A stretch of 62,510 nt of DNA, counting the filler, from Hausera hauseri (taxonomy: Eukaryota): the NCBI GenBank assembly GCA_046269625.1. It is 12 parts of 12 records of this genome, joined end to end, with 100 filler letters (N's around TTAATTAATTAA, not from the genome) between each part and the next. Parts side by side here need not be neighbours in the genome. Positions count along the whole stretch, not along the records: positions 53,508 to 57,488 come from JBJURY010841635.1; positions 57,589 to 62,510 come from JBJURY010390812.1; 10 more parts are not named here. One strand, given 5' to 3'. Every line of letters starts with the position of its first letter. The stretch's first letter is position 1. Of this stretch, positions 5,126-62,146 are shown piece after piece. The position numbers were made by a program, and so were the translations under genes. Under the pieces are notes generated by a model. The model worked only from the letters and a program-made list of their open reading frames with translations. It searched no databases and was not told where the DNA came from.

Positions 5126-6180
5126 ATGAACCCTATTGAAATTTTATACTTATGTTTTCTCGTCTGTATACACGCGATAAAAGGAATCGAATTTAGATTA
5201 AGTTATTCCAAACTTTTTTTACTTAAAAGTGCTTTTACACGCACGAAATATACGATACGAGGCTCATCTTTCATTGCTCATAAACGGTCTCCAAGCATCA
5301 CCGAGGTGGCAACATTCTCACCTTTGTTTTCGCATGTAAAATGTTCTTATAACGGCGCTACTACTCCTGTATGGCAATTGTTTAATCGTGCAACAGCTAC
5401 AAGTTACACCAAAAACATAGATACCGGTCGTATTGTACATTTCGACGTCACTGTTGACGTTATTAACCATCGATCGGTTGAACCCCGACCACAGAAGTTA
5501 TATTTACATGAAACTCCAAAAACTCTTATTGTCAGGCCTTCCGATAAATTTAGTAACACGTTCTCCACGTTTGACGATTCACCATTTGAATGGTCAATAC
5601 ATGCGTCGGGTTTAAATAGCGATGCACAAGGTGTTCTAAGACTTATAACACGGACTGAATTAGAATATTCAACAATAATGTCGATTGGAAATTTGAACCA
5701 GCAAGGCCTCCAAGATTACATGCAGTTAGCCCGTGGTTTGAAATTAGGGTCCACTAGTATTTCTTTAATATTTCGTGACAAAAAAGTAAAAAGTATTGTG
5801 CATAGTCAAGATGTTAAGTTTTTAGTCATGGCTGTTTTATCGCCACAATGCATATAACTGATCCCTATCATTCACATATCCTATAAAATGTACATCCATA
5901 GTCAAGGATCATCTATAGAAGTAAACCTTCCGAGCAATAAATACATCTTCCAAGCCAACAACAGTGACACCACAGTCCTTGATACTCAGCGCTCAACTGA
6001 TACAGCAAAAAAATACGCCCACATCGTAACTATACTTCTTGACAAAATATCACAGATGAAGTCCGACATCCGTCGCCAGTTTTACCCGTCGTTAAACTGG
6101 GATTCCTGTCACTTCATATTTTAATTGGAGAGACCGTTTGGGTCTTACAAGCGGTCAAAGCACATATTTGTACCGTAACT
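5126..6180 (+). pseudogene. NUP210: Nuclear pore membrane glycoprotein 210 (gp210), degraded N-terminal fragment
   Basis: Signal peptide MNPIEILYLCFLVCIHA. DTGRIVHFDVTVDVI..KLYLHETP..NTFSTFDDSPFEWSI parallels gp210 TTGQVLRCDAIVDLI..ELYLEDSP..NTFSTLAGLVFEWTI. Continues in 5888-6124 and as WVLQA near 6140. Has stops/frameshifts and ends at an LTR-type block. Confidence 0.8.
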
Positions 6181-9719: not shown

Positions 9720-10047
9720 NNNNNNNNNNNNNNNNNNNNNNNNNNNNNNNNNNNNNNNNNNNNTTAATTAATTAANNNNNNNNNNNNNNNNNNNNNNNNN
9801 NNNNNNNNNNNNNNNNNNNGGGCAATCAACTATAAAAAGAGAAGTACCAAAAATCGTAACTAAGAAATATTCAGATACTTCTGCCTATTGGTTATGATAG
9901 GGATACCAGGCCTATTAGCTCAGACGATGAAACCACTCGACCCATAGATGAGAACATTCCTTCCAAACAAAACCTTAGAAAGTAGACTGACGAAAAGTAT
10001 TTATCATGAGATAACTTACACAAAAAGGCCAAAAATGCATAAAATTT

Positions 10048-11232
10048 ATGACATTTGAAAGGTTACCCAACCAGTACATGATAGAAATCCAAGTAATCCA
10101 CAAGCACGATCATGAACAAAGTTCGAAACAACGAAAGTATGATTGCGAACTTACTTATTGGAGGAACACGACAGAATGTATAGTAGACGACTCTGGCTAT
10201 TATCTCATATATTATACTGTGATCAAGAGACATAAGAATACCTATCAATGGCAATATACCAAATGTCGAGGTATTATTCAGGTTCCTAATAAACGAATAA
10301 TGAATTCAATCAAATTGGATGAGATAATAATAACTCAACTTACCGTTAAGTCAATAGAATTTAAAAGCGGACGAAGTTGTATTGAAATTAAAACCATGAT
10401 AGAACTGGAAGAAAAGAGAGCAATAAGTATAATACTCACGGATGTAGAAAAGAAACAAAAGATACCAACAAAATTCCGGTTGACGGACAGACATCTTCAA
10501 ATTTGCTGTGAAGCCGTACAACGAAGAACCAATGACTTACAATTTATATTAACACGAAAGGATCCGGAGAACGTCAAATCATTAATTCACCAGGGGCCAA
10601 GAATATATGTTCAACTCAAAAATGTTGTTAAATACTACGACCACCAGCAACCAATTGTCACGACACCGTTTGTAAATCCTCCACGATCTAATAAATTACA
10701 GATTAGTATTGGAGAAATGACTGTTCTCATTTGACCTCACGTTTTACCCTATCGTCAGAAGCGTTCTGTTTTAGAAAATATCACAGTATCTTCCACATTC
10801 ACTTCCTTAGTTATAGCTATCCAACCTGATTTAAATTTTTATAAAATTAAACTCGCCTGTAAGCTATGTCAAAAGATAATAGCAAAAGGCATAATCACGC
10901 CAGACGATACAATAGTGCCGTGTGCCGACCTAAGACCAAATACAAAATATACAGTTACATTGAAATTATATGGCGATGATAATACGATGATTGCAACTAA
11001 ATCGCTAACAGCTTCGACGAGAGCCCAAATACAGCAAAAACCAGAAAATAAAAAAATAAGTACAAGTCCCTTTAATTCTTCAGGTTTTATTCTGACGAGG
11101 GAAATAAATAAGTTCCAAATAAATTCCAACAAGTTGCAACTTTTAAAGTTTATTTTTTTTAAACGTTTTAACATCAATATTTCATTTATCAATATTTACA
11201 ATTATTTACATATATCAGTAAAAATATATTAG
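10048..11232 (+). CDS. Unknown protein(s); the C-terminal part resembles a fibronectin type III repeat
   Basis: 228-aa ORF (10048-10734) followed by CADLRPNTKYTVTLKLY, an FN3-like LxPxTxYxVxL motif. Confidence 0.3.
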
Positions 11233-12598
11233 TCGCTCGGAAATAATATTTTTTGGTTTTGATCTTTTGAACGGCATACTCGTCTAGCTTGTACACAAAC
11301 ATCTGCCATACATAAATTGATAGACCCATTTCTCAGTTTCGGATGTCTGGATTTTATGAATTCTTTAATAGCCGATATAATTTTTGGATTGAATTTCTGT
11401 TTGTAATAGCCTTCTCCACTTAAAGAACTGGCGGCTAAAATTTTCTGAGAAAAGAAATTCTTCATCAGCAGTCGAATGAATCTGGTGGCACTGTTTAAAG
11501 CTTTGAGCAACATTATTTGATAAAGGTCTTTTCCGATAAAATAATTCCGTAGTATGAGAAATGAGTAGAAAATTTCCGTCGGAAAAACTAGACGCGCCCA
11601 CCATCGCAGCACCACATTACCGTACCAAAAATCGGTTATTGATTTTTGACAAATTTGGTAAACTGAGAAATTCTCGACATTTGGCTTTGAATGCAATTGC
11701 TGAAATACTTTTGTTTTCCAATGAATCCAACTTTTTCACCAAATACGTTGTTACGATTCTTTGTTCACTCGTTGGATCTCGATGTAAAGTTCGACTTACA
11801 ACTTTGATAGCGTATTTTTCACAAAATCGCTTCAGTTTTCTTATGCTTGTTTTTGTATCAACTGGAAATCTCGGCGTTTGTTCTAGCTCCTTACAAATTA
11901 AGCACGTTGGCATGACGTATGGTAAAATTTCAAATTTACAGCATCTCCGTAGAACTTGTCATTTCAAATCTACCTGTTATTAGATTCAAAAACAACGATG
12001 AGTTGTAATAGGAATTGCTGTCCAATGATGCAATTACTTTAATTTTTGTGAAATATTCTAATACAGATTTTGTCAGTGATTCAGTTTGAAATTTGACGTA
12101 AAATTTTTTCTTTATACGTTTTCTAATTTTCTTAAAAATACCATGGCTTTGTGTTGACCTTTTGTCTTCTCTTTTGAATTCTTTTGATATTAGTTGTTTT
12201 CTAACTAACTGGAGTATTGATTTCACGTTGTTTTGCGTTAAGTAATAACTATAAAAAAATTGTTTGTACCTTTTAATCCATTTTAAGATGCGATTTTTAT
12301 CACTTCTTTTAATAATTGCCAGCCACATTAAATGTGTACCCGTGTTTTGAAAAGGTCCGGGAATTTCTGGTATACCATTAGACAGATTGTCCATTTTTCC
12401 AATTAACGGTATTTTATGCAAATTTTCGTTTCTCCGAATGAAATTTAACTTCCGTGGATCGCCACAAACGAGTTCCAGAGGTGTACGTTCATCAAGAGAC
12501 ATTTTAAGTAACGGTCGATAATCTGACACCATTATTACTTTAATATAGAACGGCAAAATTCCAAATAAATAAAATTCCAAATGTAGAAAATAAAGCAA
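11229..12598 (-). CDS. BEN-domain protein; upstream ORFs 11617-11913 and 11936-12598 are probably exons or neighbouring genes
   Basis: ATRFIRLLMKNFFSQKILAASSLSG..FNPKIISAIKEFI..INLCMADVCVQARR is a typical C-terminal BEN domain pattern; exon structure not resolved. Confidence 0.65.
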
Positions 12599-12931
12599 TA
12601 ACTAATAAAGTTTTATTCAGTCAACAAAATTTCAAAAAAAATTCAATAAATTTTTTATCAATTATCATATTCATAGAAATAGTCTAAAATGGAAATTAGC
12701 AGTAAATTGAGTAGAAGGAAATTGATAAAAATGACTTCATTAAACCATATAAATTTGTATGATGTATTCATCCCTCATTTCTGATGGCATTCCTCCGTTC
12801 GAAGTAACTTTTACCACTGACATAAATTTTATTTAAATACATCTAGCACACAACCGATAAAAGTTGATGCACTCAAATGTTATACAGAAATAAAAGAATC
12901 CAGTTGATCGCTTTTGTTTAAACAAAATTAA

Positions 12932-19103: not shown

Positions 19104-20040
19104 TTAACACTTTCGCGCACCGGCGACGCGTATATGCATCCTATGACTTTTAGCGCGATTTTCTTATCTTAACTTTTTCACATCAAATACATTGATATCA
19201 CATTAGTCATCAATAAAAGCATTATACATTTATTCATTCACCTACTCATTCATTCTTTCATTCACAATAAAGTTTCATTTTTTCAAGTGTAATAATCTGA
19301 TTCTGGTTCAGAAACGGATATTTATTCATATTCGAGTGATGGGTATTCGACTGACAATCAACCTGAAATTAGAAGATCACGACGGTTTTATTGGCAAAAA
19401 TCTAATTTTCGTCCTAAAAAATGTGATTTCGACAGTTCTTCATCGGGAATTAGCGATAATATATCAATTGAGAGCTTTTGATTATTTCAAGGTATTCTTT
19501 GATGAAGAAATAATGCAAAAAAACTTTGAAATGGCAAGATGTAACATCATCTGAAATGTATAGATGAAAATTTACTGCTTTACAAGGGAAGCCTATCATT
19601 TACACAGTATTTATCTAACAAGAGAAGTAGATTTGGGATAAAATTTTTCATTTTGTGCGATTATGAAAGTAAGTTCGTGTTAGAATTTATCATTTACACC
19701 GGAAAAGATACAAATGTCGTCAATGGTGAAGAAATTGGCATTTCAGGATCATTGGTAAAACCATTGATGCATCGATACGGGAACCGAAATCATATACTCT
19801 ACATTGGCAACCGGTATTCTAGCCCTATCTTATTCGAATTACTGCAGAAAAACGGACTTGGAGCTTGTGGAACAGTGAAATATTAGCTCTAAAGTATATG
19901 GATAAGAGAGAAGTCTTCAAGCAAAGCTCAGTACATGCTAATGATATGGTCGATACGGGTAAAAAGGATCACAAAACGAAGAGAAACATCATCAAGTCAT
20001 TATGCATAACTGAGTACAACCAATATATGGTGATTTTAGA
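19104..20040 (+). mobile_element. piggyBac transposon relic (PGBD4-like), internally deleted
   Basis: TTAA-CACTTT putative left end; FDYFKVFFDEE; IDENLLLYKG..QYLSNKRSRFGIK..LCD..IYTGK; (D>G)NRYSSPIL..ACGTV. Confidence 0.85.
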
Positions 20041-23999: not shown

Positions 24000-25511
24000 T
24001 CTTATCGCTGTCTTTGTATTGCGGTACCGAAGGGGGTAGAGTGGCAAAGGCGGCTGAGCGTCTTACGATTGCTTACCTTGGAGACCGCGTCTCCTCCCTT
24101 AGGCTCATCGTCATCCGAATCGTTTTTTCGAAATTTTGTATTTCTTTGTCCTATAAAAAATATAGGTTTTCTCTTTCGTTGTCTCGCCACGTTGCTTTTC
24201 CATCTGTTTTCTTCGTAGGCCTTCAAAAATTTTCCAAACGATGTTATGATTGCGGTCAAAATTTTGCATGAAAATCAGGTTAGAGTAAATATTTCATAAC
24301 CATTTATGATAGATTGAATTATAGCCTTTACGAGTTGTAACAAGAAGTAGATGACTAAAAATCCTGATGCAGCTTGTCCGAAAATTAAAAATCTTTCCCA
24401 AATGTTATATAATATTTCTGTAGTGACTCTTTGATAATGATTGACGCCAAGTATGGATTCCCATTTTGCTTTATAGCGAGTGTCATCCATTACCGTTGAC
24501 ATGGCTCTATTTAGCTCATGTGCACGTTGTCGAGGGAAGGCTAAAATTTGTTTGAAAGCTTCAATTTCATTTGGTCTGTAAATCCTTTACTTGCAGTGTC
24601 GGCGAACTTATCGTCTGTTNNNNNNNNNNTTATTCCTTTTAACAAATTTATTCCAGTTAATTATCCAGGCGTTGCTATTATTACTCCATTTTGAAGACTT
24701 TTGCAATCTGTCTCACTTCTCTTAAACATAAGTTCGCCTAAGCCTACTTTACATTCTTTTAAAATTGTTGGCTGTGTCGAGTTTTCTAGCAAAACTTTTG
24801 TAAGTAGCATAGCCAATCGCGGTACATTTTGATATATGACTGTCAATTCTTGAATACAACGTTTTTCCTCCACATTTAGGGATACGTCCCGTTTTTCACA
24901 CTCGTAGGTCAACAGAACTTCTCCTGTAACTCTTCCGAAAATGCCTTCTTTCATTGGAATTACAGGTGACGCTAGTTCTGGATTTGCATATATTAAGGCT
25001 ACTTTGGTTCTCATAATTTCTATATCCAATTTACAGTCGTTTGCGATTATCTTGTGAGATAACTGTGCTAGTCCAATTTGCCCTTTATAATAAAAGTAAT
25101 AATCTCTATTCTTTAAATAATCTTCTATTTTTACATCTTGTGTTTGGAGAGAAAAAGTAGCTATTGCAGCTTCTGCTACGAAGAATGCTTCATAATTTGT
25201 GGTTTACATTACTACATCACATCGGGAAAGCATTTACTTCTTAATTAACTTCAATCCGTGACCTTGGGAGATCAATATCCTGGGTGTCGATTGTTCAGCG
25301 ACGTCCTTCCTTGACCTGGCATTATTGTCGGTTGCATATACATATCTTTTTCCCGTGGTTTCGTCAAAATTTATTTCTTTTATTTTAATAAATTTGCAAT
25401 CGTTCATAGGTGGTGGGGTCAAAATAACTATCGAATTTCGGAAAGTACAGGCACCATCTTGGATATGACACTTCTGGTTTTCGGTATATTTTTGTGTAAC
25501 TCTATGGAACA
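24000..25511 (-). pseudogene. Envelope glycoprotein, chuvirus-G/herpes-gB-like class III fusogen (C-terminal half, TM helices, tail)
   Basis: CKLDIEIMRTKVALIYANP..GIFGRVTGEVLLTYEC..RCIQELTVIY; IYRPNEIEAFKQILAFPRQR; WERFLIFGQAASGFLVIYFLLQLV transmembrane segment. Confidence 0.72.
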
Positions 25512-25743
25512 NNNNNNNNNNNNNNNNNNNNNNNNNNNNNNNNNNNNNNNNNNNNTTAATTAATTAANNNNNNNNNNNNNNNNNNNNNNNNNNNNNNNNN
25601 NNNNNNNNNNNCGGTAAGTATATGATGATTCGGCGATATGGGTGCATGGTTTTCATCTTTCTGTCCCAGTTTACCGAATCTTTCATTTGCGTTTCGTTCT
25701 AATTGTTGTAATGCAAGCAAAACCGACACCATCGACGGCAACG

Positions 25744-26773
25744 ATGGGCGACGTGTGGTTCGATCCGCGTCAACCCGTCGGGTATACTGGCGTCGACAAA
25801 CTGGCAAAGACTGTCAAACAGACTCGGAAATAGACCCAACGTTGGCTCGGGAAACAGTTAGCATACATCCTAAACAAACCGATAAGAAGGCGGTTTTCAA
25901 CTCGTGCATACCGTGCTGCCGGTGTAAATAATGTATGGTAAATGAATCTGATGGAAATGATTCTGTACGCTAGCATCAACAATGGGTATCGGTACGTTCT
26001 GACATGTGTTGATGTGTTTAGTCGTTTTGCACGTGCAATTGCTATGAAATCTAAATCCTGTAAAGAGATTGCCGATGCTGTCTAGACACTGATACAACAA
26101 CAACAACAACAGTCACTGAAGCATTTACAAACAGATTTGGGTAAGGAATTCTACAACGCCCACGGTCTTGTAGACTGTTCGGCGTAAACCATTACCCTGT
26201 GTTTTTCCAATTCAAGGCTGCACTCGTAAAAGATTTAATCAAATATTGCGCGGTCACCTAAACAAATTCTTTACGACGCAAAACAACAAACTCAGGATAG
26301 AAGTACTACCAGATATTATTCATGCACACAATCATTAGACACATAGGGGTATCAATGGATTGCGGCCGGTTGAGGTAATCGATGATTTGAACATGTGGCT
26401 TTATCAAAACCCACGAGGACGACAGGCAATTAAACGCCCAAAATATAAAATCGGTGCTTACGTACGTATTTCTAAAATAATTACGATGCCATTCATTAAG
26501 AATTTCAATCAGAACTGGAGCGACGAGGTTTTCCGCATTTTGGCAATCAACACAAAGCAAATACCTGTCATGTACGTTTTAGAGGATGAAAACAGTGAAG
26601 AAATACGCGGTAAATTCTAGGAAAAGGACCTGCAAGTACTGCTCGAGAAACCTGATGTATATCGTATTCAGGAAATTCTACGTTCAAGTGGAAATGGTTA
26701 GAATAAACAATATCTCGTCAATTGGCACGGATACACTACACCGAGTTGGATTTTTGCATCTCAGATTGAGTGA
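25744..26773 (+). pseudogene. Polinton rve integrase with C-terminal chromodomain (copy A)
   Basis: WFDPRQPVGYTGVDKL, GYRYVLTCVDVFSRF, LQTDLGKEFYN, NWSDEVF, YRIQEIL..YLVNWHGY. Confidence 0.9.
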
Positions 26774-27840
26774 TGAGCATTTATTAGGTACTTGATAGTA
26801 ATAGATCATTATCACAACATGACGACGACAATGACGACAATATCGCTAAACAGTTTACCGTGCACTTTAACCAACCGGTCGATTTACGCCACGGAGCCTA
26901 AGAAGTGGCTTTGACGGAATTCATATTTATATTTTCACAATGACAATAAATCAGAACAGTGGTATTTACTTTATTCAACAAGAAACGTACCCTATTTCAA
27001 GTTATTTGCGTACAATCCGACACAGTAACCGATATATTTTTCGCAATTATTCGCGAGAAAATTTTTCGGTTTATGCTTATTTTTCAAACTACCGTATGAT
27101 ACTAATGCATCGAAATCCCATGGATTTGCAGTTTAAATCTATAGCTGATGCTCAGGCATAGGGTTTTCAATCAGTCAATGTACACTCAAAACGTCTACGG
27201 CTAGGTGGACATGTTATAATTGGTGAAAAATTGGACTTTTCATCCAATGCAGAATCCAAAATTATAGTAAAGTGGACTAAGTCAGAATCCGTCTTCCGCT
27301 CATATACTATACCACACGATTTATTAATGCAAACAGAACTGGAATTGTATGAGTACGTCAAGAAAACGGCTACATTAGCCTTAAAGACATGTGAAATAAA
27401 CGCAGATGGTCATATTTCAATTATACTACATGACAAGGTTACATAATTTGCATTTGATGAATTATTCGTTCTGAATCTGGGATTTCACAACGCGAATACA
27501 ATCAAAACATTGTTGGACGATCTAATGTTGCCAAATACAAACCACAAGTCTATGGAGCATTTCACCGAATCAACATTTTAACTGACTTAACCGAATCCAA
27601 ACTCATTGATGAAGAACGTAAACAACTAGTGGCTTCTATCGAACTGGATTCTGACACGTACAAAACATCACATCGGGTGAAACTGTGCGCGTTAATATGC
27701 TCAGAACCATGTACTTATCATTGTCTCACAATATTGTGCACAGTATTTCCGTGTATATGATTGATGAATTTTGGGAACCCATTAAACTTCTGTTGGGGTC
27801 AACGACACATTTGACGTTACATTTTCGGCGCCGTCGATAA
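26773..27840 (+). pseudogene. Minor capsid (penton) protein 1, copy A
   Basis: N-terminal MSIY..F..EVALTEF and C-terminal MYLSL..TTHLTLHFRR. Confidence 0.75.
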
Positions 27841-28849: not shown

Positions 28850-29864
28850 TGTGGTGCCCGCAGCAGCCGGTGCCCTCTGGCCCATTTGGTTGGGCGTGGC
28901 CGGGCGTCCGTTGCCCCGCGTAGGGCCCATAGTCGAGCCCAATTTTCCACCTCGAAAAAGATTCAAAATCAAATTCAGGAAAAATAAATCAGAGAACAAG
29001 CCAGACAGCAATTAGTGAATATGAGCAGTGCACAGATCGTATCCGATGTGAATATTCCCAAAAATTTTTTCGTTACAATAAGATTCAAACAAATCTTCAA
29101 ACAGCAACGAATACAACAGTCACAGAAACAACAACAATCAATCAATGTCAAAATTTTCCCCTCATCATTACAAGATATGCCATCATTACAACCGGTACCT
29201 CACATGTTTGTGGGCCGTTGTATTACCAGGAATAAAATGCGATTGGTCAAATTAAAAGTTTCCCTCAAAGGAAACGAATATCCCGTCACTTTTGAAAAAG
29301 GCAACATACAAATTCTCGAGAGAATCGAAGCACAAACACCAATATACGAAAATGGTCTATCTGTTTACCGATTTGAAAACGTTTCAATGTGACTACATCA
29401 GAAAATTCATGATGAAACTCAGATTTTTGAAGAAATATCACTAACGAAATATTCGTACATTCAGTATCATAATATGGAATCAATGGTTTTTTGTTCAATT
29501 CAAAAATATCGGTTTCACATTAACAGTACTAAACAACCCAATCTCTTACAGAAACTCATGGTATCAAAAGTCATTTTAAAATTAAAGGATATTTCATTCG
29601 ATACGAACTTCTTATATGTTAAAGATTCGTACAAACCAAAGTGTGATCCGTTAATTGTCACTCGAATTAATAATAATGTTAATTCTGAACCGAAATGTCC
29701 AGTCGAAAAATCTCAAGTTAACAGTCAACTACATACCCCAATCAAACGTCGAGTAGCTGCTAAAATTCGACGAACGGTGAGTGAAACTGAAATTTCAACG
29801 AAAGTAAGCAGATTATCCACCTCAGGTGATTTAAACCAATATTCCAAAAGGTCCGTGATGAGTC
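28850..29864 (-). mobile_element. LTR-type insertion into penton-2 (terminus TGTGGTGCCC) carrying unknown + strand ORFs 29015-29864
   Basis: Penton homology stops at 28849; the next ~120 bp match the reverse complement of 56130-56256. Confidence 0.7.
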
Positions 29865-30527: not shown

Positions 30528-31136
30528 CTAATCTGAACTTTCATTATCATCATCCTTGGTATCATTGAGTAGAATTGTTTTGTTATCGTCTTCTATGGCA
30601 GTAATGTCTGAATGGGCATGGGAATGGTATTTATAGTTTCTTGTTGTTGTGCAATGTACATTATTTTGATTCAGTAAAATATTTATGTGAATTTTAATTT
30701 GATTAATAATCATTTTATAGTCCACTGTCCGAATACCGAGTACAACTATTTTTCCCCTGCTAAACACATTGACACAAAGTGGGCGAAACGATGTCAGTCT
30801 TAGTGCAGGAAACAATTCGGGTTCATATGTACATTCATCAGTGGCCATTGCTAATCTGTACAAATTGATTTTTTGGTGGTGGTAGTCTAACTGATTCGTT
30901 ACCGTTATTGATTGGATTTTGTCAATGACAATTTCGAATGGTAATAGTTTACTGTCGTCAACTGTGATTGGTTTGCGACAACCCATAATACAACACTTTC
31001 CCGATTGAAATACGATGCATGTAAAATTCGGTGGACACCGAAAAACATACTGTTTCGGCTTCCATTGATTAAAAGGTATTGTGCTAATAATGTCACACTC
31101 GGTAACATGTCCGCGATAGTTGATATTAGCTAACAT
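30528..31136 (-). CDS. Divergent TATA-binding-protein (TBP)-like protein
   Basis: Two TBP repeats: TCIVFQSGKCCIMGC and INLYRLA..YEPELFPAL..VNVFSRGKIVVLG (canonical: ALIFSSGKMVCTGA; YEPELFPGL; LLIFVSGKVVLTG); intronless. Confidence 0.85.
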   Translation of the reverse strand: MLANINYRGHVTECDIISTIPFNQWKPKQYVFRCPPNFTCIVFQSGKCCIMGCRKPITVDDSKLLPFEIVIDKIQSITVTNQLDYHHQKINLYRLAMATDECTYEPELFPALRLTSFRPLCVNVFSRGKIVVLGIRTVDYKMIINQIKIHINILLNQNNVHCTTTRNYKYHSHAHSDITAIEDDNKTILLNDTKDDDNESSD

Positions 31137-31236
31137 TATGAAAACAGTTTTTATACTATAGCTATTTATATATGCGTGTAACATGATTATAAACAAATCA
31201 TGTGATGGTGAGGGAAGGTTGTATTATTATTATTAG
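31137..31236. promoter_or_regulatory. Putative bidirectional promoter between the TBP-like and ATPase genes
   Basis: About 100-bp gap between divergent starts, with TATAAAA and TATATAAATA on minus and TATAAA on plus; the AT-rich background weakens this. Confidence 0.3.
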
Positions 31237-32008: not shown

Positions 32009-32471
32009 ACCACCGCTACAGTAAAGCGATTAATCAATTCTGTGCTTCGTCGAACAATAACAACAACTAGACGCAAATTACCGTTACAGGGGCAACGGTT
32101 ATAAACAACTACGTCAAATCAGCATCAATACGTCCACAAAAAGCATGTGATTCAAACGTAGTCAACTGTACTTTATTGCTTTGATCAAGGCACCTACGAG
32201 ACATAAGCAAAACATGCTACGATCATTCCCACAGTTTGTAGTAGACGATTGGATGGAAAATGTGTACAATATCGTCGTAGGTCACGTTGACATTGGTAGT
32301 GGAAAGCGGAATTTACTAAAGTATCGAAAACGACTTATTGGCCTTGTCAACGCTCATAGTAAACGACTGAAACTAGAGGTTATGTACCAGCAAGACGGTG
32401 GATTCCTTGGTACAATTTTACCTATTGTCGAGTCATTAGTGGGTGGACTCATTGGTTCTGCAACAACATGA
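32004..32471 (+). pseudogene. Small Polinton virion protein with C-terminal QxGGFL amphipathic helix
   Basis: ENVYNIVVGHV..LLKYRKRL..QQDGGFLGTILPIVESLVGGL; second copy at about 57125-57488 (-). Confidence 0.75.
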
Positions 32472-32623
32472 TAGTATAAACAGTGACCGTAAGTATATGA
32501 TGATTCGGCGATATGGGTGCATGTTTTTCATCTTTCTGTCCCAGTTTACCGAATCTTTCATTTACGTTTCGTTCTAATTGTTGTAATACAAGCATCAAAA
32601 CCGACACCATCGACGGCAACAAC

Positions 32624-33602
32624 GATAAGCGATGTGTGGTTCAACCCGCGTCATCCCGCCGGCTATACTGGCGTCGACAAACTGACAAATACTGTCAAAC
32701 AGACTCGGCAACAGACCTAACGTTGTGTCGAAAAACAGTTAGCACACAGACTAAACAAACTGATAAGAAAGCGGTTTCCAAGTCATGCATACCGTGCTGC
32801 CGGTGTAAATAACGTATGGCAAATGGATCTGATGGAAATGATTCCGTACTCCAGTATCAACGATGGATATCGGTACGTGCTAACATGCGTTGATGTGTAT
32901 AGTCGTTTTGCATGCGCAATTACCGTGAAATCTAAATCCTGTAAAGAAATTGCCGACGCTGTTCAGACACTGATACTACAACAACAACCGAAGCATTTAC
33001 AAACGGATTTGGTTAAGGAATTCTACAACGCTCACGTTGCAGCGGTATTGAAACGGTTCCGCTTAAATAACTACTCGGTGTTTTCCCAATACAAAGCTGC
33101 ACTCGTCGAACGATTTTACGAACATTGCGCGGTCGCCTAAACAAATTCTTTACGAACCATGGCACAAACGCTGGGTAGATATACTACTGGACACATCGAC
33201 GGCATCGTGGCATCAATGGATTACGACCGGTTGACGTAATCGATGAATTGGACATGTGGCTTTATCAAAACCAAACACGACGACAGGCAGTTAAACGTAT
33301 TTCGAAAATAAGTACGACACCATTCATTAAAAATTTCAATCGGAACTGGAGCAGCGAGGTTTGTCGAATTTCGGCAATCAACACAAAACAAACACCTATC
33401 ATGTACGGTTTAGAGAATGAAAACGGTGAGGAAATACGCGGTAAATTCTGCGAACAAGAAATACAGGTACTGCCCGAGAAACCCGATGTATATCGTATTC
33501 AGGAAATTCTACGTTCACGAGGCAAGGGTCTGAATAAACAATATTGTCAAGTTGCACGGATACACTGCATCGAGTTGGATTTTTGCATAGCAGATTGAGT
33601 GA
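32624..33602 (+). pseudogene. Polinton rve integrase-chromodomain (copy B)
   Basis: WQMDLMEM, LTCVDVYSRF, LQTDLVKEFYN, KAALVERF. Confidence 0.9.
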
Positions 33603-34660
33603 TAAGCATTTATTTGGTATTTGAGAGTAACAGATTATTATCACAACATGACGACAATAACAATACCGCTAAACCGTTTACCATGCACTTCCACCAACCG
33701 TGCGATTTACGTCCCGGAGCCTAGGAATTGGCCTTGACGGAATTCACATTTACATTTTCACCAATGGCAATACGTCAGAACAGTGGCATTTACTTTAACC
33801 GACAAGAAACGTACCCTATTTCAAGTCATTTTCGGACAATCCCACAGAATAACCCATATACTCTTCGCAATTATTTGCGACAAAATTTCTTGGTTTATGA
33901 TTATCTTTCAAACTACTGTGTGAAACTAATACATCGATATCCTATAGAAATGCAGTTTAAATCTATAGCTGTTGCTCAGGCATGGGGTTTTCAATCAGTC
34001 AATCTACACTCAAAACGTTTACGGCTAGGTGGATATGTTATAATTGGTGAAAAATTGGATCTTTTATCCAATGCCGAATTCAATATTACAGTAAAGTGGA
34101 CTAAGTCAGAATCAGTCTTTCGCTCATATATTATACAACACGATTTATTAATGGAAATGGAAATGGAATTATGTGAGTACGTCAAGAAGACGGCTACATT
34201 AGCTGTAAAAACATGTGAAATATACGAAGATAGTCAAATTTCGATTATACTACAAGACGATGTTACACATTTTGCTTTTGATGAATTATTGACTAGGAAT
34301 CTGGGTTTTTAAAAACGCATATTCTATCAAACCATTGTTGGACAATCTATTGTTGCCAAATACAAACCGCAATTGTATGGAGCATTTCATAGAATTAACA
34401 TTTTAACAGACTTAACCGAATCTGTACTTGTTGATAGAGAACGTAAACAATTACTGGCTTCTATCGAACTGGGTTCTAACACGTATAAAACATCGTGTGA
34501 AACTGTTCGCGTTAATATGCTCAAACCCATGTACTTATCATTGTCTCACAATATTGTGCACAGTATTTCCCTGTATATGCTTGATGAATTTTTGGAACCC
34601 ATTAATTTTCTGTTTGGGTCAACGACACATTTGACGTTACATTTTCGACGTCGTCGATGA
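33602..34660 (+). pseudogene. Penton 1 (copy B)
   Basis: ALTEFTF; KQLLASI..PMYLSL..HLTLHFRRRR. Confidence 0.78.
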
Positions 34661-46163: not shown

Positions 46164-47212
46164 ATGGATAAGAAGCATTTGCGTACGATTTTTTATACGA
46201 GTTCAAGCTCGGTCATAATGCAGTTGAAGCTAGCCGTAATATAAACTGTCTTTGGAAAGACAGTGTAAATGAAAGAACTGTGCAACGTTGGTTTGTACAA
46301 TTCTGTGGGTGAGATGAAAGCCTCGAGGATGAAGAAAGATCTGGTCGTTCCTATGTAATTAACAACGATGAACTGAAAGCTTTGATCGAAGCTGATCCTC
46401 ACCAAACTATTGCGGAGCTTACAGAACAATTAGGAGTTCGTTCATCAACAGTGTGTAAGCATCTGCACCAACTGGGTAAATCCAAGAAGCTGGAGAAATG
46501 GGTGCCGCATGAACTGAACGAAAAACATAGAAATCTCCGCTACGAATTGTGTTCATCGCTTCTTCTGGGCAATAAAACGAACCGTTTCTTGATCTCATTG
46601 TTACGTGCGATGAAAAATGGATTATTTATGACAACAGACCACGTGCGGTCAGTGGTTGGATAAAGGTGAACTTCCAAAACAATTTCCCGAACCTAATTTG
46701 CATATCAAGAAGGTTATGACGATAGTTTGGTTGTCTGTAGCTGGGATCGTCGATTATGGCTTTCTGAATCCGGGAGAAACCATCACAGCCGAGATGCCCT
46801 GTCGTCTAATCGATGAAATGCACAAGAAATTACTACGTCTTTAACCAGCATTGTTCAATCAAAAATGTCTTATATTCCTCAACGATTCCTCAAAAATGAC
46901 ACTCCAGAAGCTGCACCCGCCTTACTCACCTGACCTGTCACCGACAGATTATCACCTCTTTTACTACCTCGACCCCTTCTTGAAGGAGAAAACCTTCGAA
47001 GATCAAGCTACTGCTAAGAAGGCCTTCGAAGACTTCCTTCACTCCCTGACTCCTGATTTTTACAAATCTGGAATACATAAGCTTGTATCCCGTTGGGAAG
47101 AATGTGTACACTCTGAAGGTTTTTATTTCTAGTTAATATGTTTTGTTTTGGCAAAGTTATGCGTCTTTTAAATTATGGTTATAAAACCACATAACTTTTC
47201 GAACGACTGGAT
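46164..47212 (+). mobile_element. Mariner transposon (Hsmar1/SETMAR-like), degenerate transposase plus right TIR
   Basis: YEFKLGHNA, TVQRWF, LEDEERSGR, WVPHEL, HPPYSPDLSPTDYHLF; TIR-like AAAACCACATAACTTTTCGAACGACTGGATA. Confidence 0.95.
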
Positions 47213-53407: not shown

Positions 53408-54016
53408 NNNNNNNNNNNNNNNNNNNNNNNNNNNNNNNNNNNNNNNNNNNNTTAATTAATTAANNNNNNNNNNNNNNNNNNNNNNNNNNNNNNNNNNNNN
53501 NNNNNNNATAGTATATTCCACTGTTCTCACGTATTGTTATTGGTGAAAATGTAAATGTGAATTCCGCCAAAGCCACTTCCCAGGTTTCCTGGCGTAAGTC
53601 GAGCGGCTTGTCCAACGCCATGGTAAACCGTTCAGCGGTATTGTTGTTGTTGTTGTTGTCATGTTCTGGTAATCTGTTATTATCAAGTACCAAATAAATG
53701 CTCATCATTCAATCTGCGATGCAAATATCCAACTCGGTGTAGTGTATCCGTGCCACTTGACAAGATATTGTTTCTTCGAACCTTTGCCGCGTGAACGTAG
53801 AATTTCCTGAATACGATACACATCAGGTTTTTCCTGTAGTATTTGCAGTTCCTGTTCGTAAAATTTGCCATGTATTTCGTCATCATTTTCATCCTCTAAA
53901 ACGTACATAACAGATGTTTTTTGTGTTGATTGTTGAAATTCGGAAAACCTCATCGCTCCAATTCTGATTGAAATTCGCAATGAATGGTGTCGTACTCAGA
54001 TTTGAAATATGTACAT

Positions 54017-56256
54017 TCTGGTTCCGTTGGATGATTGAAATCAATTTCGATGATGTTGTCATGAATGCATAAAGCAACAGAATCCGTTTCAACAAACTCC
54101 GCTAAACGTCTATGATTTGGGAATAACTCCATCTTGTTATCCATTGCTTCAAACTCAATTTTGCACTTCAGAAAATATAGTTAAATCCTCAAAGAAAAAA
54201 TTTCGTGACAAAATATCTTATAAGATACTGAAAATGCCAATATGGCATTTTTATTAATTTTCAAATTCGAAAAAGTTCACTCCGAATAAATTTTATTTCT
54301 GCTAAACAAATTATTTACCAAATCATAAATTATATTTGAAGACATAAATTCATTAAGTTTTATCAATAGCCAAATTGACAATTCACAAAAATCTGATGAT
54401 TATCAAAACGTTCATTCATTCGTTAAAAATATCTCGTGCAATTAATTCCTTCATGGTTTCATTAGATCCTGCATATATCGACTGAACTCTAACGTCAGCA
54501 TACGATTTGCAAACGGGATATTCCCACATATATCCCCAACCACCATGCAATTGAACGCAATCGTAACACACTTTGTTTAAAAGATCATTCGCATAAAATT
54601 TAGTCATCGAAGACGTTTGGGAATCTAACTTGCCTTCATTTAACAACTTCAAACAATCATCAATAAACGATCTTGTAACGGAAATGATGTTTTAATTTCA
54701 GCCATTTTATGTTGAATTGTCTGCAAGGTGCTCAGCGTACTTTTAAAGGCCTTCTTCTGTTTAACGTATGCTCGAATTTCTTCAAAAACAAATTTCCCCA
54801 TAGATTGAGACATTGCAGCAACAACGATTCTTCCTCTTGGTAATTCTTGCCTCAAATATACAAATCCCTTGTTTTCTTCAACAAGTAAATGACTTAGATA
54901 ATCTTACGTCTTCGAAAAATAACTCCGACGTATCTTGGGCTTTCAAACCCATCCTTTTCAATTTCTTTCCTTTCATGAATTCTGACATTCCAGCTTCGAC
55001 AATAAACAAGCTGATTCCGTGAGCTGCCGATTTCGCTTCAGTATTAGTGACAGCCACCACATTTGCCAAATCGGCTAGAGCACCGTTGGTAATGAGTACT
55101 TTAATACCGGACAAAATATAATCACTGCCATCTTTCTTTGCTCTAGAACGTACGGCTTGTAAATCGCTGCCAACACTGGGCTCAGTCATTGCTATACAGC
55201 CAATATAATCACCGCTAGTTAATCGAGACATATATATTTTTTTTGCTCTTTGGTTGCATACTTGCTCAAATACGGCATGACTATATGAGAATGAAGTGGA
55301 AATCCTGGACCTAAACAATTTGAATAGGCTAATGAAATTGACACAAAATAGAATCAGTCAAAGCGATCAAATACTGAAACATGAAATAAATTAAATATTG
55401 TAAAAGGTAATTGATGAATGGGATAAAACGCGAAGGGACAACATTTTCTTGATTTGCAAGTAATTGGTCAAATTTTTGAGACAAATTTAGAGAAAATATT
55501 TCTTTGACAACTTCCGTAAGATAGTGTTGACTAAGTGAAATTCAATGATGGTTGGACTTAACTTTTTTGTCTTCAAGTGACCATTCGAATTTTCTACAAT
55601 GTTTGAACTTGTGACTAAAATCTTGTTAGCATAATCTTTAAAGCCAAACAAAGACTGTTGGATTGTAAAACATTCGAAAAATTAAGTCAAACACAACCTA
55701 ACTATCATATAGGTCAGTATTCGGTCCGTAATGCTTCATTATTCTGTGAGGCGAATATTTCTTTGGATGGAGTTAAGCTGCAACTTGTATAGGGAAAAAG
55801 CACTCTTTGTCAATTAATCATTTTTTATGGAAATAATTCGAAATCGAAAACAGTTTGTCGTGGATTAATGTCGTGTATCAATTCATGTTGATGTTTCATC
55901 ACGATGATTATGAAAATAATTCTATCGACGAACGGTTTGATTCTAGTTGGGTCCGGAAGATGGCGTATTTAGAACTGAAAAATTGTTAACATTGGTATTT
56001 TGTTTGGTTCGTGCATATGAGCATTTATTATGTCGCAATATCGGAGAGAGCGCGAAGAGGCAATTCTTGACTGGCTGGTCGTCACGTGGACGTGATCGAT
56101 GATGGATGGCAGTCTGGAAACATCTTTTCGATTTTGAATTTTGGGAGCAAAAAGTTAGGAAATCGGACCGAACTATGCATCCGAGGCGGCGGCAATGGAA
56201 GCCCGGCTGAGCTCGACCAAATAAGCCAAAGGGCACAGGCCGCTATGGGCACCACA
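54017..56256 (+). mobile_element. 2,240-bp solo-LTR-like insertion with 5-bp TSD TACAT
   Basis: TACAT at 54012-54016 and 56257-56261; ends TCTGG...CCACA; excision restores integrase KIGDYVHIS. Confidence 0.85.
54416..55310 (-). pseudogene. ACADL: Long-chain acyl-CoA dehydrogenase, 3' two-thirds, frameshifted
   Basis: PGFPLHSHIVMPY, IAMTEPSVGSDLQ, GLKAQDTSELFFEDVRL, QLHGGWGYMWEYP; three frameshifts; ELPQER changed to ELPRGR. Confidence 0.88.
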
Positions 56257-57840
56257 TACATAATCACCGATTTTATGCTTGGGACGTTTAGTCGGTCGTC
56301 ATCGTCGTTGTGTTCGGTTTTGGTAAAGCCACATGTCCAAATCATCGATTATATCCACTGGCCATAACCCATTGATGCCACGATGTGTCGAATGATTGTA
56401 TGCGTGAATAATATCCGTCAGTACATCTACCCAGCGTTTGTTGCATTGCTTCATAAAGAATTTGTTTAGGCGACTGCGAATTGTCCAATTAAATCTTTCA
56501 ACGGGTGCAACATTGTATTGGCAAAATACTGAGTAGTGGTTTACGCCGAACCGTTTCAATACCGCTGCAACGTGAGTGTTGTAGAATTCCTTAACCAAAT
56601 CCGTTTGTAAATGCTTCGGTGGCTGTTATTGTTGTTGTATCGGTGTCTGAACAGCGTCGGCAATCTCTTTACCGGATTTAGATTTCACAGCAATTGCGCG
56701 TGCAAAACGACTAAACTCATTAATACATGTCAGCACGTACCGATACCCATCGTTGATGCTAGAGTACGGAATCATTTCCATTAGATTTTGCCATACGTTA
56801 TTTACACTGAAAGCACGGTATGCACGAGTTGAAAATAGCCTTCTTATCGGTTTGTTTAGGTTGTATGCTAACTGTTTCCCCAGCCAACGTTGGGTTTTTC
56901 GCCGACTCTGTTTGACATTCTGTGCCAATTTATCGACGCTAGTATACTCGACGGGATGACGCGGATCGAACCACAAGTCGCCCATCGTTGTTGTCGATAG
57001 TGTCGGTTTTGCTTGCATTACAACAATTAAAACAAAAAGTAAATGAAAGATTCGGTAAAGTGGGACAAAAATATGAAAACCATGCACCCATATCGCAAAT
57101 CACCATATACTTACAGTCATTGTTTATACTGCGTTGCTGCAGTACCTATGAGACCACCCAGTAATGACGTGATAAGCAGTAGAATTGCACTAACGAATCC
57201 TCCGTCTTGCTGAAACATGACCTCTCATTTCAATCCTTTACTACAAATGTTGGCAAGACCAATGAGTCGTTTTCGATACTTTAGTAAATTCCGCTTCCCA
57301 CTACCAACGTCAACGTGACCCACAACGATATTGTATAAAATTTCCTTCAAATAGTCTACTACAAACTGTGGGAATGATCACAGCATGTTTCACTTATGTC
57401 TGGTAGGTGCCTTGAGCAAAGCAATAAAGTACGGCTGACTAAGTTTGAATTGCATTTTCTGGACGCATTGATACTGATGAGACGTAGTNNNNNNNNNNNN
57501 NNNNNNNNNNNNNNNNNNNNNNNNNNNNNNNNTTAATTAATTAANNNNNNNNNNNNNNNNNNNNNNNNNNNNNNNNNNNNNNNNNNNNATTCATTTATAG
57601 CTACAAATTTGGATATAATTTCCACTGCAACTATGGATAAACAAAGTTTATCGATGGTTCCGAAATCAAACATGAAATAATGTGTCATTGAATGACAATA
57701 TATGATAGTTTGTATAAAGCGAATTTCGTGAATAGACTTTGCAAATAGTATAAGTAGAAAGTTGAATCCAGAAAAAAGAAATGACTATATTTAACAACAA
57801 CAAGAACATGAAACAATGTCAAATAAACAAAGGAATGCAT

Positions 57841-60800
57841 CTACTGCCATGCACGGTAAAGTGCGCGACGTGCAGCTAATTTCTGTGTAATGAAAGCACC
57901 GAAAATCATGCCGATCGTCACAGTTGCAATGAACAAATAATCAAAATCTTCTTTCAACACATCATACATTTTACTAGGTGCCACCTGAGTAAAGAACAAA
58001 TCCAGCCCATTGATAAACACCAAACTCGTTGACTCGAGTCCCGATGGACCAGAGAAAATGTGTCGAGTTCGTGCAATTGTGTGATTATAATTGATAAGAT
58101 TAAATGGCTTTATGATAATTTCCGGCATGTATGGTTCAACTCCTTCTTCACTGGAAATAATAAGTCATAGAAAATGGAGTTACATCATCGATAATCAATT
58201 ACAGTAATTCCTGTGTCATACTCAATGATCGCCGAGGGTCTAATTGGGCCTTGGGTAATTCGAGGATACTGCCTGATTCAAGTGCAACTGAATAACAAGG
58301 AAATGGCCAATAGACGACAGATCGACGATGAATAACTTACGTAACAGACTCTTAGATGTGATCCCCTTTTCTGTAATAGACACAGCCGCCCGTCTGATAA
58401 ATGTGCCCATGATGTAGCCTTGTTTGAGTACGACAGGATTCGACAAAATATTCTCCTCAGCCGACATTATTCGACTGCGTTGTCTCGATGAAAATTTCTT
58501 CGTTGTCGCCCGTTCACCACCAATGATTGATATGATGTCAAACCCTCCACCGACGTCATGTCGATTGACATTCATGGACCGACGTAATTGGCCAATGTCG
58601 ACATCTTTGATTTCTGTTATAATGGAGTCGGGAATTTCGTATGGTTCGTACAATTCCATTACGGCTATTTCCGTTCGGTGGGATCGGAGATTTTGGAATG
58701 AGTACTGAATAGGTGAAATTGTATTGCGTACTAAGGACTATTCAAATGTACCACTATCCAATTTTCAGATTGGACTAAATTGAGGGGACCAGATGCTTTT
58801 TTGTGAACTGTGCTGTATACGATTTTCCCTGTAACGACATCAATGAGATAGAGTGTTACGGCTGTTGCGTCAGTTTGATGGGAACCATCATTGGATTGAC
58901 TGTTACTGTTGATTATTGATTCTGTCATCAGTGCAAGGAGATTTGGATTGAGATATTTGTATAGCACATTTCGATCGGATAGTACTTTACCAACGGAATG
59001 AACTTGTTCTGTAAAATATCAAATATGATTGTTTTCGAACAAACGATTTGTGAGTATTCACGGATAAGACTCAGATTGGCATACGTTGTTGTCGTTGGTT
59101 GTGAATTTTGGTGAACGTTTTGTCGATAGATACATGGAAACTCGATAGCTGTGTTCAATTTAATGAATGATTTTTGTAATTATTTAATGAACACTTTTGT
59201 CTCATTCAATGCATAACGCGAATATTGTGTTTATTGATTTGTTAAATTAAAACTCGAATAAAAGATTTGGAGGTGGTTCTCCCCACGGAATAATCCCGTA
59301 TTCGAGTTCTCATAAAAATATCGTTGTTTTCTTTGTTTATTTATCGGTTTAAAAAAGACAACACCGAGTTGTATTTAGAAACACTACAATACAGCCCCCC
59401 CATCGACACCCACGTATCACAATCTACAAAATATAAAACCTACCAATCGGTGATTTGAACGCAATTGCCGATATTCTTTGAGCCATGACACTGAAATCCA
59501 ATTTCCATATTTCATGAGCCACATAACAGTCATGATCCTGACTGGTCGGTGATGCACACTCCTCGGTTAGATGTCGTCGAATTTCGTAACCGAATACGAC
59601 ACTGGTGACGTCATCAACACGATAGATAAATATGGGATGAGTTTCCAATGATAATTTGAATGTGAAAGGGAAAATATGAACCTGATGAAGATGAGACACA
59701 ATAAAATAATCAATAATCAACAGACAATATGTATGTGGTAGGAATGTTGCATGACACACACACTCACACACGCATACACACAAACAACAACGACAACATG
59801 CAGCTTACTTTGAGGGCACTTCCATACTAATGAAAATTATGTCAATGAAATACCGTTATCAATGAAATTATCGATACAAACGTACCTTGAGATTCCTGTC
59901 CAACATCAATACCGGTTTACTGTACGCGTTATCCTCACTGACTGGCAAAGGTAACAAAGTAGCTTGGTAAATGTTGTACGGCAATTTGATAACAGATTGT
60001 TGCGGTGTCCCCGTAATGGGGTTAAATGTGAACAAGATGGGCTTTCCCGTTATCTAAATCAATGGACGAGTGACGTGTGACAATACAGTCGATACGTACT
60101 GCATCCAGCATCAATAATGCTGCTTCGGGAGGATGGGGGAAATGAGCAGTCGTACGCAGGATAAACAATTGCACCTTCTTGCCCTTGAATGGTTTGGCGT
60201 TGTCGATTAGATGACGCCAAATTATTCGACCAGATGATGATTCCATTCCGAATACCTTTCCGGCAGTCGTTGCCAACACGAGCATTTTATGAACGTTAAA
60301 ACTATCCCGTCGGAGAGACGTAGCTAAATTCATCTGGGGATCGGCAAATGATTCATTACCCGGTGTGTCAGTCATTGAGGACTGATCCTCACCGTCACCA
60401 GCACAGCCCCATTCATCCTTTCGTTGGCAATAAGCCTTGTCTTGACTACTGTATCGTGGTGTACGAGACTGTCTAATTTGCTCCTGGATGAAATACTACA
60501 ACACGATGTGACATTCATGAATTTGCATTACTTTTAATTGTGATAATTGCGTGCTGATTCGTTTGAAAAATTTCTGTGCAATGTTGTCTTTGTTGTGACC
60601 GAATTCCTCGTCCATTTTCGCCTCGGTATCCGATACTGGTAAATCTAACATGTCTACTGTGACAACATCGGCCAAAGATTCCTCTCTCATCCACAGTACA
60701 TTGCCTGTTGAGAAAATTTAACAAATTAATTAATTAATTAATTAATTAAATTAATTAAAAATTCCAATCCAACCGTTATGATTCAAAAAATGAAGCGCAT

Positions 60801-62146
60801 GATCACTGGTCATCATAAACAGCCTATACGCAATTCCACTGTCCTTTTTACGGAACAGAACCGGTTCTATTTTCACAGGACGACCATGATGGGCGGCCAA
60901 TGTAAAATCATTGGATAACGATTTTATTTCTCTGCCGTCCTTTAAATCTGCGAATCGAACGCGTACATTACGCAATTTCTGAGAAGGAACAAATTCAACA
61001 GTGGCAAGAAACAGTTGACCATCCTGATCAGCGATGGAAGGCAGATAAACATTTCCAATGGAAAATTGGAGAGAAACAGACAGCAGTCCGTGATCGGTGA
61101 TTGTAACATCGTAGACCGCTACTGAATAGCTGCTATCTGCATCGCTGCCCAGTGGATATCCAATAAGGAATTTATCGGCTGCCACGATGTTGACGTACGC
61201 CGCATTCTGTCGACTGAAATCTGCCGGTAACATGATATGGGTCGATAGGAATTTCGGATTCGCGTGGTTCGTGTTCATGACGCGCACCTGTGCTTCGGAA
61301 ACGTCCAGACAGACGAACATTTGATGAGCCGACGAACTATCACACATTACGGCATTTGACAATGACCCTGAACTGGAATCTGCGACATTGATAACGCCGC
61401 CAGAATTACTGAATAATTTAAACGAGAATTTCTTGCCCGACTCAACAATCAACATCACAGAATCGGATGACTTTCTTATTATCAAATGGAATCGACTGAT
61501 TTCTGATGGTTTGACGGATCTGTTAAAATACACAATCAATTACTCCATTAATTAATTTCTTACAAATCTGAATTCCATTTATCGGCGCCGGTTTTCAATC
61601 CAAATGCCGACAATTGACTGTCATACGCAACGTAAATCGTGTCAGAATCTTCATCACACCTCATCAACGTTTTGTTAACTCTCGATTCCGTCAATTGTTT
61701 CTCCCATAACAACGTACCAACGACAGTATCCCACACACGCAACAACGGCGCATCTTCCAACATAGTCAATGTCGTCAAATCTACAAAATCCCCAAAATAA
61801 TAGAATAAAATTCCAAGTCAAGCCGTACGATTTTTGCAATAATCGACGGATAAGACCTTTTCATCTTCCTTCAAATGTTGTCGCCATTCTATTAAAATCC
61901 CCAAAATAAATCAACAAAACAATTTGCCAAACCGATATTGCCAGAAACGAGATTTATCGCAGCATAAACGTTACTGTCGGTCGTAACGATAATTCGGCGG
62001 CTCGGTGCATTGTGTTTCTCGATGTAATACTTGTCAACAACACCGAGATATTGCTGGTACCAATCAAATTTACCGACTTGATCTTCGTAAAGACCATTGC
62101 AAAATTGTAAAATTAATAAAGGAAAGAATAAAATTGAAATATGCAT
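57841..62146 (-). CDS. EMC1: ER membrane protein complex subunit 1, multi-exon with mostly short GT-AG introns
   Basis: Signal peptide + LYEDQVGKFDW; REESLADV; RDSFNVHKMLV; YKYLNPNL; SENWIV; SGLESTSLV..GLDLFFTQVAPSKMYDVLKEDFDY + TM + LYRAWQ stop. Confidence 0.95.

Follow-up and report, generated by a model that had tools for sequence, protein, structure and literature searches.

The DNA considered here (referred to as the window) is a stretch of 62,510 nucleotides, filler included, from Hausera hauseri (assembly GCA_046269625.1), composed of 12 contigs of 4-7 kb each that are joined by N-padded spacers. In one of these contigs (JBJURY010841635.1), an integrase gene is interrupted by a 2,240 bp unit that is flanked by a TACAT duplication and carries a decayed piece of ACADL, the gene for long-chain acyl-CoA dehydrogenase (Table 1). 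As the window consists of short contigs joined together, the true context of the insertion extends only over positions 53508-57488. The interrupted gene is likely that of a Polinton; the Pfam domain rve is recognized in a sister copy of the integrase, and DNA_pol_B_2 in another contig. The Polinton label, and the capsid and protease calls for this element, rest on motifs that we take to be characteristic of such elements. A capsid search in PDB and a search for the integrase family in IMG/VR viral contigs were both empty.

The 2,240 bp insertion is real. An uninterrupted integrase copy at 25614-26970 is collinear with both flanks of the insert at 82-84% identity; specifically, the right flank aligns with 25614-26467 (84%) and the left flank with 26462-26970 (82%), so that both alignments end on the duplicated bases, 26462-26467. 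A second copy at 32108-33794 also lacks the insert, with about 40 bp differing near the site. Related contigs and their depth were taken from the public run X1, for which 15 joints are listed and 49 further joints lie beyond these. Two of the 15 listed joints (from three contigs) skip exactly 2,245 bp, which corresponds to the insert plus one copy of the duplication. The chance match of a given 5-mer at this base composition is about 1/750, and the duplication could consist of 4 bp and one chance base. The unit at 54017-56256 is bounded by a target-site duplication at an otherwise empty site, and the length of this duplication lies within the 4-6 bp expected of a solo long terminal repeat (LTR) of a Ty3/Gypsy element. 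It shares with such repeats the lack of internal gag or pol and of paired repeats: no long direct repeat was found inside it, and comparison of its six frames with Pfam returned only acyl-CoA dehydrogenase-type domains, with no gag or pol and no remnants of other open reading frames (ORFs).

An earlier note on this DNA, made from its letters alone, had described much of this structure. Its exact TACAT duplication with 2,240 bp between the copies, its lack of paired LTRs and of gag and pol, and its identification of the gene piece as ACADL were all borne out, as was the more general statement that a retroviral-type integrase had inserted a unit with a Gypsy-like end and host-gene sequence. The ends were given there as T(C)TGG...CCACA, which is correct when the plus strand is read (TCTGG and CCACA), although only one end is canonical, the 3′ end of the minus strand being CCAGA. 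The insertion is precise, as claimed; the integrase has further stop codons on both sides of the insert, and the gene is dead.

The best BLASTP identities of the cargo are 70-72%, to mollusc long-chain acyl-CoA dehydrogenases; metagenome relatives of ACADL are 50-63% identical to the mollusc query (best 80 of 585). Nineteen of 123 near-invariant residues are changed in the cargo, compared with a median of 0 in 102 homologues (two homologue models have 10 and 15). With these changes and its 3 frameshifts, but no internal stop, the cargo is a piece of a pseudogene in mild decay; it gives no sign of function, and the copy is dead. In a tree built from 115 ACADL columns it lies on a long branch, and a placement of the host was not obtained.

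Breaks in homologous gene models were read as exon boundaries of ACADL. Such breaks occur at residues 124/125 (pangolin isoform P0039, wolverine P0063 and sea slug P0015), at 289/290 (six vertebrate isoforms) and at 327/328 (vertebrates, the snail Lymnaea P0006 and the fluke Opisthorchis P0024). The first boundary is where the cargo begins, and the other two are passed without interruption. A yardstick for the host is offered by the EMC1-like gene in the last contig of the window, whose introns are mostly 44-69 nt long at a density of 3.4 per kb, with a longest exon of 746 nt; 10 of the 11 introns, as mapped by eye, gave an open frame of 975 codons. A word-based search at E 1e-10 found no homologue of this gene, which suggests that the host lineage is fast-evolving or poorly sampled. 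At the intron density of this one gene, 914 intron-free nt would have a Poisson chance of about 0.04. Given the conserved intron positions that are crossed and the dense introns of the host, the cargo was likely copied from mRNA, in which a single intron of 46 nt was perhaps retained; by this proxy, it resembles retrocopies of the type described by Tan et al. (2016) in its absence of introns.

The candidate retained intron falls in the same size class as EMC1-like introns of 44-53 nt, and 1 of 128 control AG sites satisfied the same criteria, which were set post hoc. The ACADL join at this candidate lies 2 nt off what we take to be the vertebrate phase, and the stretch is therefore likely, but not certain, to be a retained intron. 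These observations depart from the earlier note, in which the gene piece was thought to begin directly after an acceptor-like TTGTTTAG and was read as unspliced, transduplicated DNA. In fact, TTGTTTAG encodes part of N-C-L-G, and homology starts 15 nt earlier, at 55329; moreover, the coding piece of 914 nt passes through conserved intron positions uninterrupted, and no more than a single short intron may be retained, at the 5′ edge and at a different site. At the other end of the cargo, the 3′ untranslated region (UTR)-like stretch reaches two AATAAA signals, and no poly(A) tract was found behind it.

Outside the cargo, the unit divides into a head, an AT-rich spacer and a tail. The window contains one further copy of the first ~130 bp, at 28850-28974 (nhmmer E 1e-12; 91 of 130 bases identical), and both copies begin at the same base. 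In the CsRn1 clade of Ty3/Gypsy elements, TGTGGYG and MSYYAMA are given as the 5′ and 3′ integrase motifs of the LTRs (PMC3601003, Table 3). The 5′ motif is matched at 7/7 positions by TGTGGTG in both insertions, and the 3′ motif at 5/7 by the far end of the ACADL unit when the minus strand is read. Of the TG...CA termini of a solo LTR, TG stands at one end of the unit; the opposite end reads GA and differs from CA or AA by a single change. Summed contig depth in run X1, which is not a copy number and is used only as a hint of repeated ends and a private core, is 237-261 at 55902-56167, 16-26 at 55104-55901, 8-12 at 54306-55103 and 20-66 at 54040-54305. The well-covered block with its AATAAA is about the size of an average CsRn1 LTR, which is 330 bp in the training set of PMC3601003. 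Other contigs of the window contain Gypsy relics whose gag motifs are CHCC-like, and the CHCC signature is described for CsRn1-type elements (PMC2582038). A linked element of this clade would have a tRNA-Trp priming site and a CHCC gag; no internal domain is linked to the unit. The head pattern was matched in neither viral nor metagenome contigs (0 matches each), a search of Rfam gave no match and a tRNA search found none; the predicted folding of the head is no better than that of shuffled sequences (z -0.03 and -1.02).

In the second insertion, at 28850, the head is followed by an open frame and then by a different cargo, on the strand of the head. This cargo likely represents an ordinary host gene. 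It has three matches, found by exhaustive HMMER search only, and no match by word search, Pfam or Atlas, nor to a transposase family. Of the three, P0126, a repetitive protein of 3,722 aa, had no aligned stretch and was set aside. The N-terminal motif of the cargo resembles what we take to be SERTA/IER-type proteins, for which Pfam gave no match. As the only named close homologue is from Dendrocoelum lacteum, the host is probably a flatworm. The earlier note had pointed to a relative of the unit at this position and suggested NUP210 as its content; the shared end stands, but the cargo is another, the NUP210 domains being at 4994-6121 in another contig. Its reading of the ACADL piece as antisense does not survive, since both cargos lie on the strand of the shared TGTGGTG head, the CsRn1 LTR 5′ motif, and antisense RNA would not be predicted from this layout of head and cargo.

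The unit is a real insertion made by an integrase. We consider it somewhat better than even (about 0.55) that it is the solo LTR of a Gypsy retrotransposon resembling CsRn1, and that a largely spliced ACADL transcript was copied into this repeat during reverse transcription. In favour of this reading, the second head carries a different gene, co-oriented and flatworm-like, and not a transposase. In the reverse transcription of LTR elements, the first cDNA carries the right end of the element and jumps to the 3′ end of an RNA, and the sequence copied next enters both LTRs. In the proposed course of events, an ACADL mRNA was packaged together with the RNA of the element, and the first cDNA piece would have transferred to the 3′ end of this mRNA, immediately behind the poly(A) signal. 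Approximately 1.1 kb of the transcript would then have been copied back to an exon boundary before a switch to the RNA of the element near its head. The resulting order would be head, spacer, sense cargo, 3′ UTR and tail, with the cargo lying between the head and the tail of the LTR. Plus-strand synthesis would place the cargo in both LTRs, integration would create the 5 bp duplication, and recombination between the LTRs would leave the solo unit flanked by that duplication.

Table 1. Features of the interrupted integrase gene, the inserted unit and related loci (positions in the window).
Feature	Position	Strand	Basis or remark
Second insertion bearing this head, located in a further copy of the large target element and truncated at the contig end	28850..29864	+	Sister alignment stops at 28848
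Cargo of second insertion; begins at the first residue of its homologue (44%), an uncharacterised protein of Dendrocoelum lacteum (170 aa)	29435..29833	+	HMMER
3′ part of interrupted integrase gene and downstream DNA	53510..54011	-	Identity of 81-82% with 26462-26970 and 33295-33794
Target-site duplication, left copy, TACAT	54012..54016	.	Direct reading; uninterrupted site 26462-26467
Inserted unit, 2,240 bp, TGTGGTG...CCAGA on inferred sense strand	54017..56256	-	Sister alignments; joints skipping 2,245 bp
Tail; covered by diverged related contigs; no similarity to head	54017..54249	-	Tables of run X1; comparison
3′ UTR-like stretch, AATAAA at 54297-54292 and 54255-54250	54250..54415	-	~165 nt behind stop
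Decayed ACADL coding sequence, residue 125 to stop; intron-free, 3 frameshifts, no internal stops	54416..55329	-	BLASTP; alignment
Candidate retained GT-AG mini-intron, 46 nt, at conserved ACADL boundary 124/125	55329..55374	-	Host intron size class
AT-rich spacer; 91%-identical relative covers 55724-55967	55375..55901	-	No Pfam match, no ACADL N-terminal match
Remainder of well-covered block, candidate U3-R of LTR; AATAAA at 56029-56024	55902..56126	-	Summed contig depth
GC-rich head, common with 28850 insertion; begins with CsRn1 5′ motif TGTGGYG	56127..56256	-	nhmmer; alignment; PMC3601003
Target-site duplication, right copy, TACAT	56257..56261	.	Direct reading
5′ part of interrupted integrase gene and upstream DNA	56262..57488	-	82-84% identical to 25614-26467 and 32108-33284
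EMC1-like host gene, apparently intact, at least 10 small GT-AG introns	57841..62146	-	Introns mapped by eye

Several observations weigh against this interpretation. The 7 bp motif TGTGGYG occurs 16 times in the window, and the minus-strand 3′ end of the unit, CCAGA, is without terminal CA. Scores for the two end motifs are nearly equal on the minus strand (7/7 and 5/7, or 12/14) and on the plus strand (5/7 and 6/7, or 11/14), so that by themselves the motifs say little about direction; we favour the minus reading, since the head shares its strand with both cargos and an AATAAA occurs 228 nt into the unit. In the window, neither head has a polypurine tract, a priming site, gag/pol or a second LTR next to it, and the identity of the LTR is therefore drawn from the 7 bp motif and the layout. 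The tail is unlike the head and unlike other DNA at LTR positions in the window, and the proposed origin does not account for the spacer of ~530 bp. A duplication of 5 bp fits best here, compared with 4 bp reported for CsRn1-like elements, whose ends are sometimes altered to AAA or ATA (PMC2582038, as far as available). The RNA origin is argued by proxy, from the conserved boundaries and the intron density of the host. Finally, the earlier note proposed to look for full elements with this cargo in both LTRs; no further ACADL-bearing copy appears among the listed joints and contigs of run X1: one 0-difference contig covers 54164-55168, and no other contig falls in three 133 bp bins of the core.

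The head could also be that of a normal LTR whose read-through or captured RNA was integrated at one end only by the integrase, by way of a cryptic CA-like end, without a paired LTR ever having existed. A far end of CCAGA and a tail unlike the head are what such one-ended integration would leave. We nevertheless regard it as unlikely, because diverged contigs cover the tail and depth rises there (20-66 versus 8), as for the end of a family, and because the far end is one transition from the CsRn1-type ...CCAAA.

Distinctly unlikely is the later insertion of an ACADL retrocopy made by a long interspersed nuclear element (LINE) into an existing repeat. The evidence for this consists of a 12/14 direct repeat, TTTCAGTAT, that brackets the cargo (55366-55379 and 54220-54233), with its second copy ~16 nt behind AATAAA. 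A private duplication of this kind was among the observations that the earlier note named as decisive against its own view; the repeat is present, but it is not significant, as 27 of 300 shuffles reach the same match. The cargo thus lacks both marks of a LINE-made processed pseudogene, a poly(A) tail and a duplication of its own, and the tract is missing even though decay is mild (19 of 123 near-invariant residues changed, no stops). Nor would such an event account for the other insertion, in which this head is followed by another host-like cargo in the same orientation.

No more credible is a non-autonomous cut-and-paste transposon, of the Pack-TIR or Ginger2/TDD-like kind, that captured host DNA. 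Both ends of the unit appear repeated and its middle private; TDD-4/5 make 5 bp duplications (PMC2836005), and single-copy Pack-TIRs are known in animals (PMC8277862). Ginger and Pack-TIR elements, as these two papers describe them, need terminal inverted repeats, and such repeats of at least 40 bp (40-270 bp in Ginger elements) are absent here: the ends match as inverted repeats at 4/5, 10/17 and 17/40 bases, with no terminal pair of arms. Furthermore, the cargo is without the conserved introns, and the ORF that follows the second head does not encode a transposase. A chimera of the assembly is very improbable, for although the contig is short and none of the listed records spans the whole stretch, the duplication is exact at a site that is uninterrupted in other copies, the second insertion begins at the same base, and contigs with 0 differences cover 54164-55168 and 55665-55990 (these possibly stem from the source run and so are not independent).

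We also entertain, more tentatively and at rather less than even odds, an extension of the proposed template switch to the family as a whole. In this extension, the first strand of a flatworm Gypsy family would routinely switch to host transcripts packaged alongside, not all of them fully spliced. The terminal repeat would itself carry host genes and consist of a fixed short head and a changing mRNA cargo, and its solo LTRs would scatter promoter-led pieces of genes over the genome.

The closest described process is LTR-mediated retroposition in metazoans (Tan et al., 2016; PMC5131818), in which a partial copy of a host mRNA is fused to DNA of an LTR element. The described retrocopies and the ACADL unit alike have no poly(A) tail and no private duplication, and switching near an exon junction was seen for BLASTOPIA (PMC5131818). 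Microsimilarity at the joints is a further mark of retrocopies of this type. In the cases set out in the available part of that paper, however, the retrocopy made by template switching replaces part of the internal ORFs between two LTRs. In contrast, the ACADL cargo lies within one duplication-flanked unit that has no internal domain and no paired repeats, reaches the 3′ signals of the mRNA and may keep one intron. The main text is without the terms 'solo' and 'within the LTR'. A literature search found no published host mRNA inside an LTR and no read-through transduction by an LTR retrotransposon; the search covered few subscription journals, and the supplements of PMC5131818 may hold a similar case. 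The ACADL unit is likely an instance of LTR-mediated retroposition with the cargo in the terminal repeat, and not in the interior of the element as in the cases that we found in the literature.

Other known systems share some of these features. CsRn1 elements have the TGTGGYG motif, AATAAA lies within the first 330 bp of the unit, and relatives with CHCC-like gag are in the assembly; their LTRs, as described, are 146-381 bp with 4 bp duplications, compared with 2.2 kb, a duplication of 5 bp (or 4 + 1) and an imperfect 3′ motif here (PMC2582038, PMC3601003). The giant LTR elements Ogre and Burro resemble the unit in their kilobase-scale LTRs and in the captured domains of planarian Gypsy elements, but the domains reported there reside in the polyprotein or accessory ORFs and are not decayed mRNA pieces in the repeat (PMC6431247). 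Pack-TIRs and Pack-MULEs, as characterized in PMC8277862, have repeated ends around a private piece of a host gene, whereas the ACADL unit lacks terminal inverted repeats and its cargo is RNA-like.

There is also a likeness to the transduction of host genes by retroviruses. In read-through transduction, as Swain and Coffin reportedly set out in 1992, host RNA 3′ of an LTR is joined to the ends of the element by non-homologous strand transfer. For the ACADL locus there is no evidence of an LTR, and the candidate intron seems to keep its donor site, for which reason a switch onto the transcript fits better than read-through.

If the proposed origin is correct, cargo inside the repeat would be doubled in each cycle, would persist when recombination eliminates the remainder of the element and would lie directly behind the LTR promoter. 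Gene fragments could be shuffled by this route, and small RNAs directed at host genes might arise from it, and it would escape standard LTR finders and retrogene screens. The proposal also yields a testable prediction on the possible landing sites of the first strand transfer. The ACADL copy shows no function itself; it is a good test case, with a clean empty site and cargo limits at an exon boundary and a poly(A) signal.

Some further observations concern the unit and its targets. The tail at 54164-54241 (minus strand) weakly resembles the N-terminus of ACADL (3.0 bits; reached in 1 of 500 shuffles and 2 of 267 window tiles). If real, this resemblance would make the cargo circularly permuted, with the 3′ part followed by the 5′ part, but it would demand an excess of changes at conserved residues and is not counted. 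At 13103, behind a purine-rich run, TGTGGTGCC occurs a third time; this site was considered as another head and discarded, as it does not align with either head and lies within gag-homologous sequence. Both head-bearing insertions (28850 and 56256) sit in copies of the same large Polinton-like element; the shared target may reflect a target preference, or only repeat-rich short contigs, the summed depth on that element being ~1e5. Among the genes beside the Polinton-like integrase is a divergent, intron-free TBP-like ORF at 30531-31223 (minus strand; Pfam TBP, E 2e-14).

Other contigs of the window carry Gypsy relics with unusual neighbours. NUP210 Ig domains 1-3 occupy two long frames at 4994-6121 (plus strand), shortly before a Gypsy gag that starts at ~6465; no clear priming site was found between these domains and the gag, and they are possibly another host-gene cargo at the position of a 5′ LTR. 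A relic of a Monjiviricetes-type fusion glycoprotein at 24278-25203 (minus strand) is immediately upstream of a Gypsy gag-pol region, where envelope-like genes are not usually located. The region 9820-12601, upstream of a Gypsy gag remnant, holds a BEN-domain frame (11232-11735) and a frame of 221 aa, both on the minus strand, as well as two plus-strand frames at 10015-11229 without a Pfam match. Remnants of a DDE_Tnp_1_7 transposase, which we take to be of piggyBac type, and of a Tc1/mariner-type transposase are found beside Gypsy relics at 19545-19883 and 46313-46841 (plus strand), respectively.

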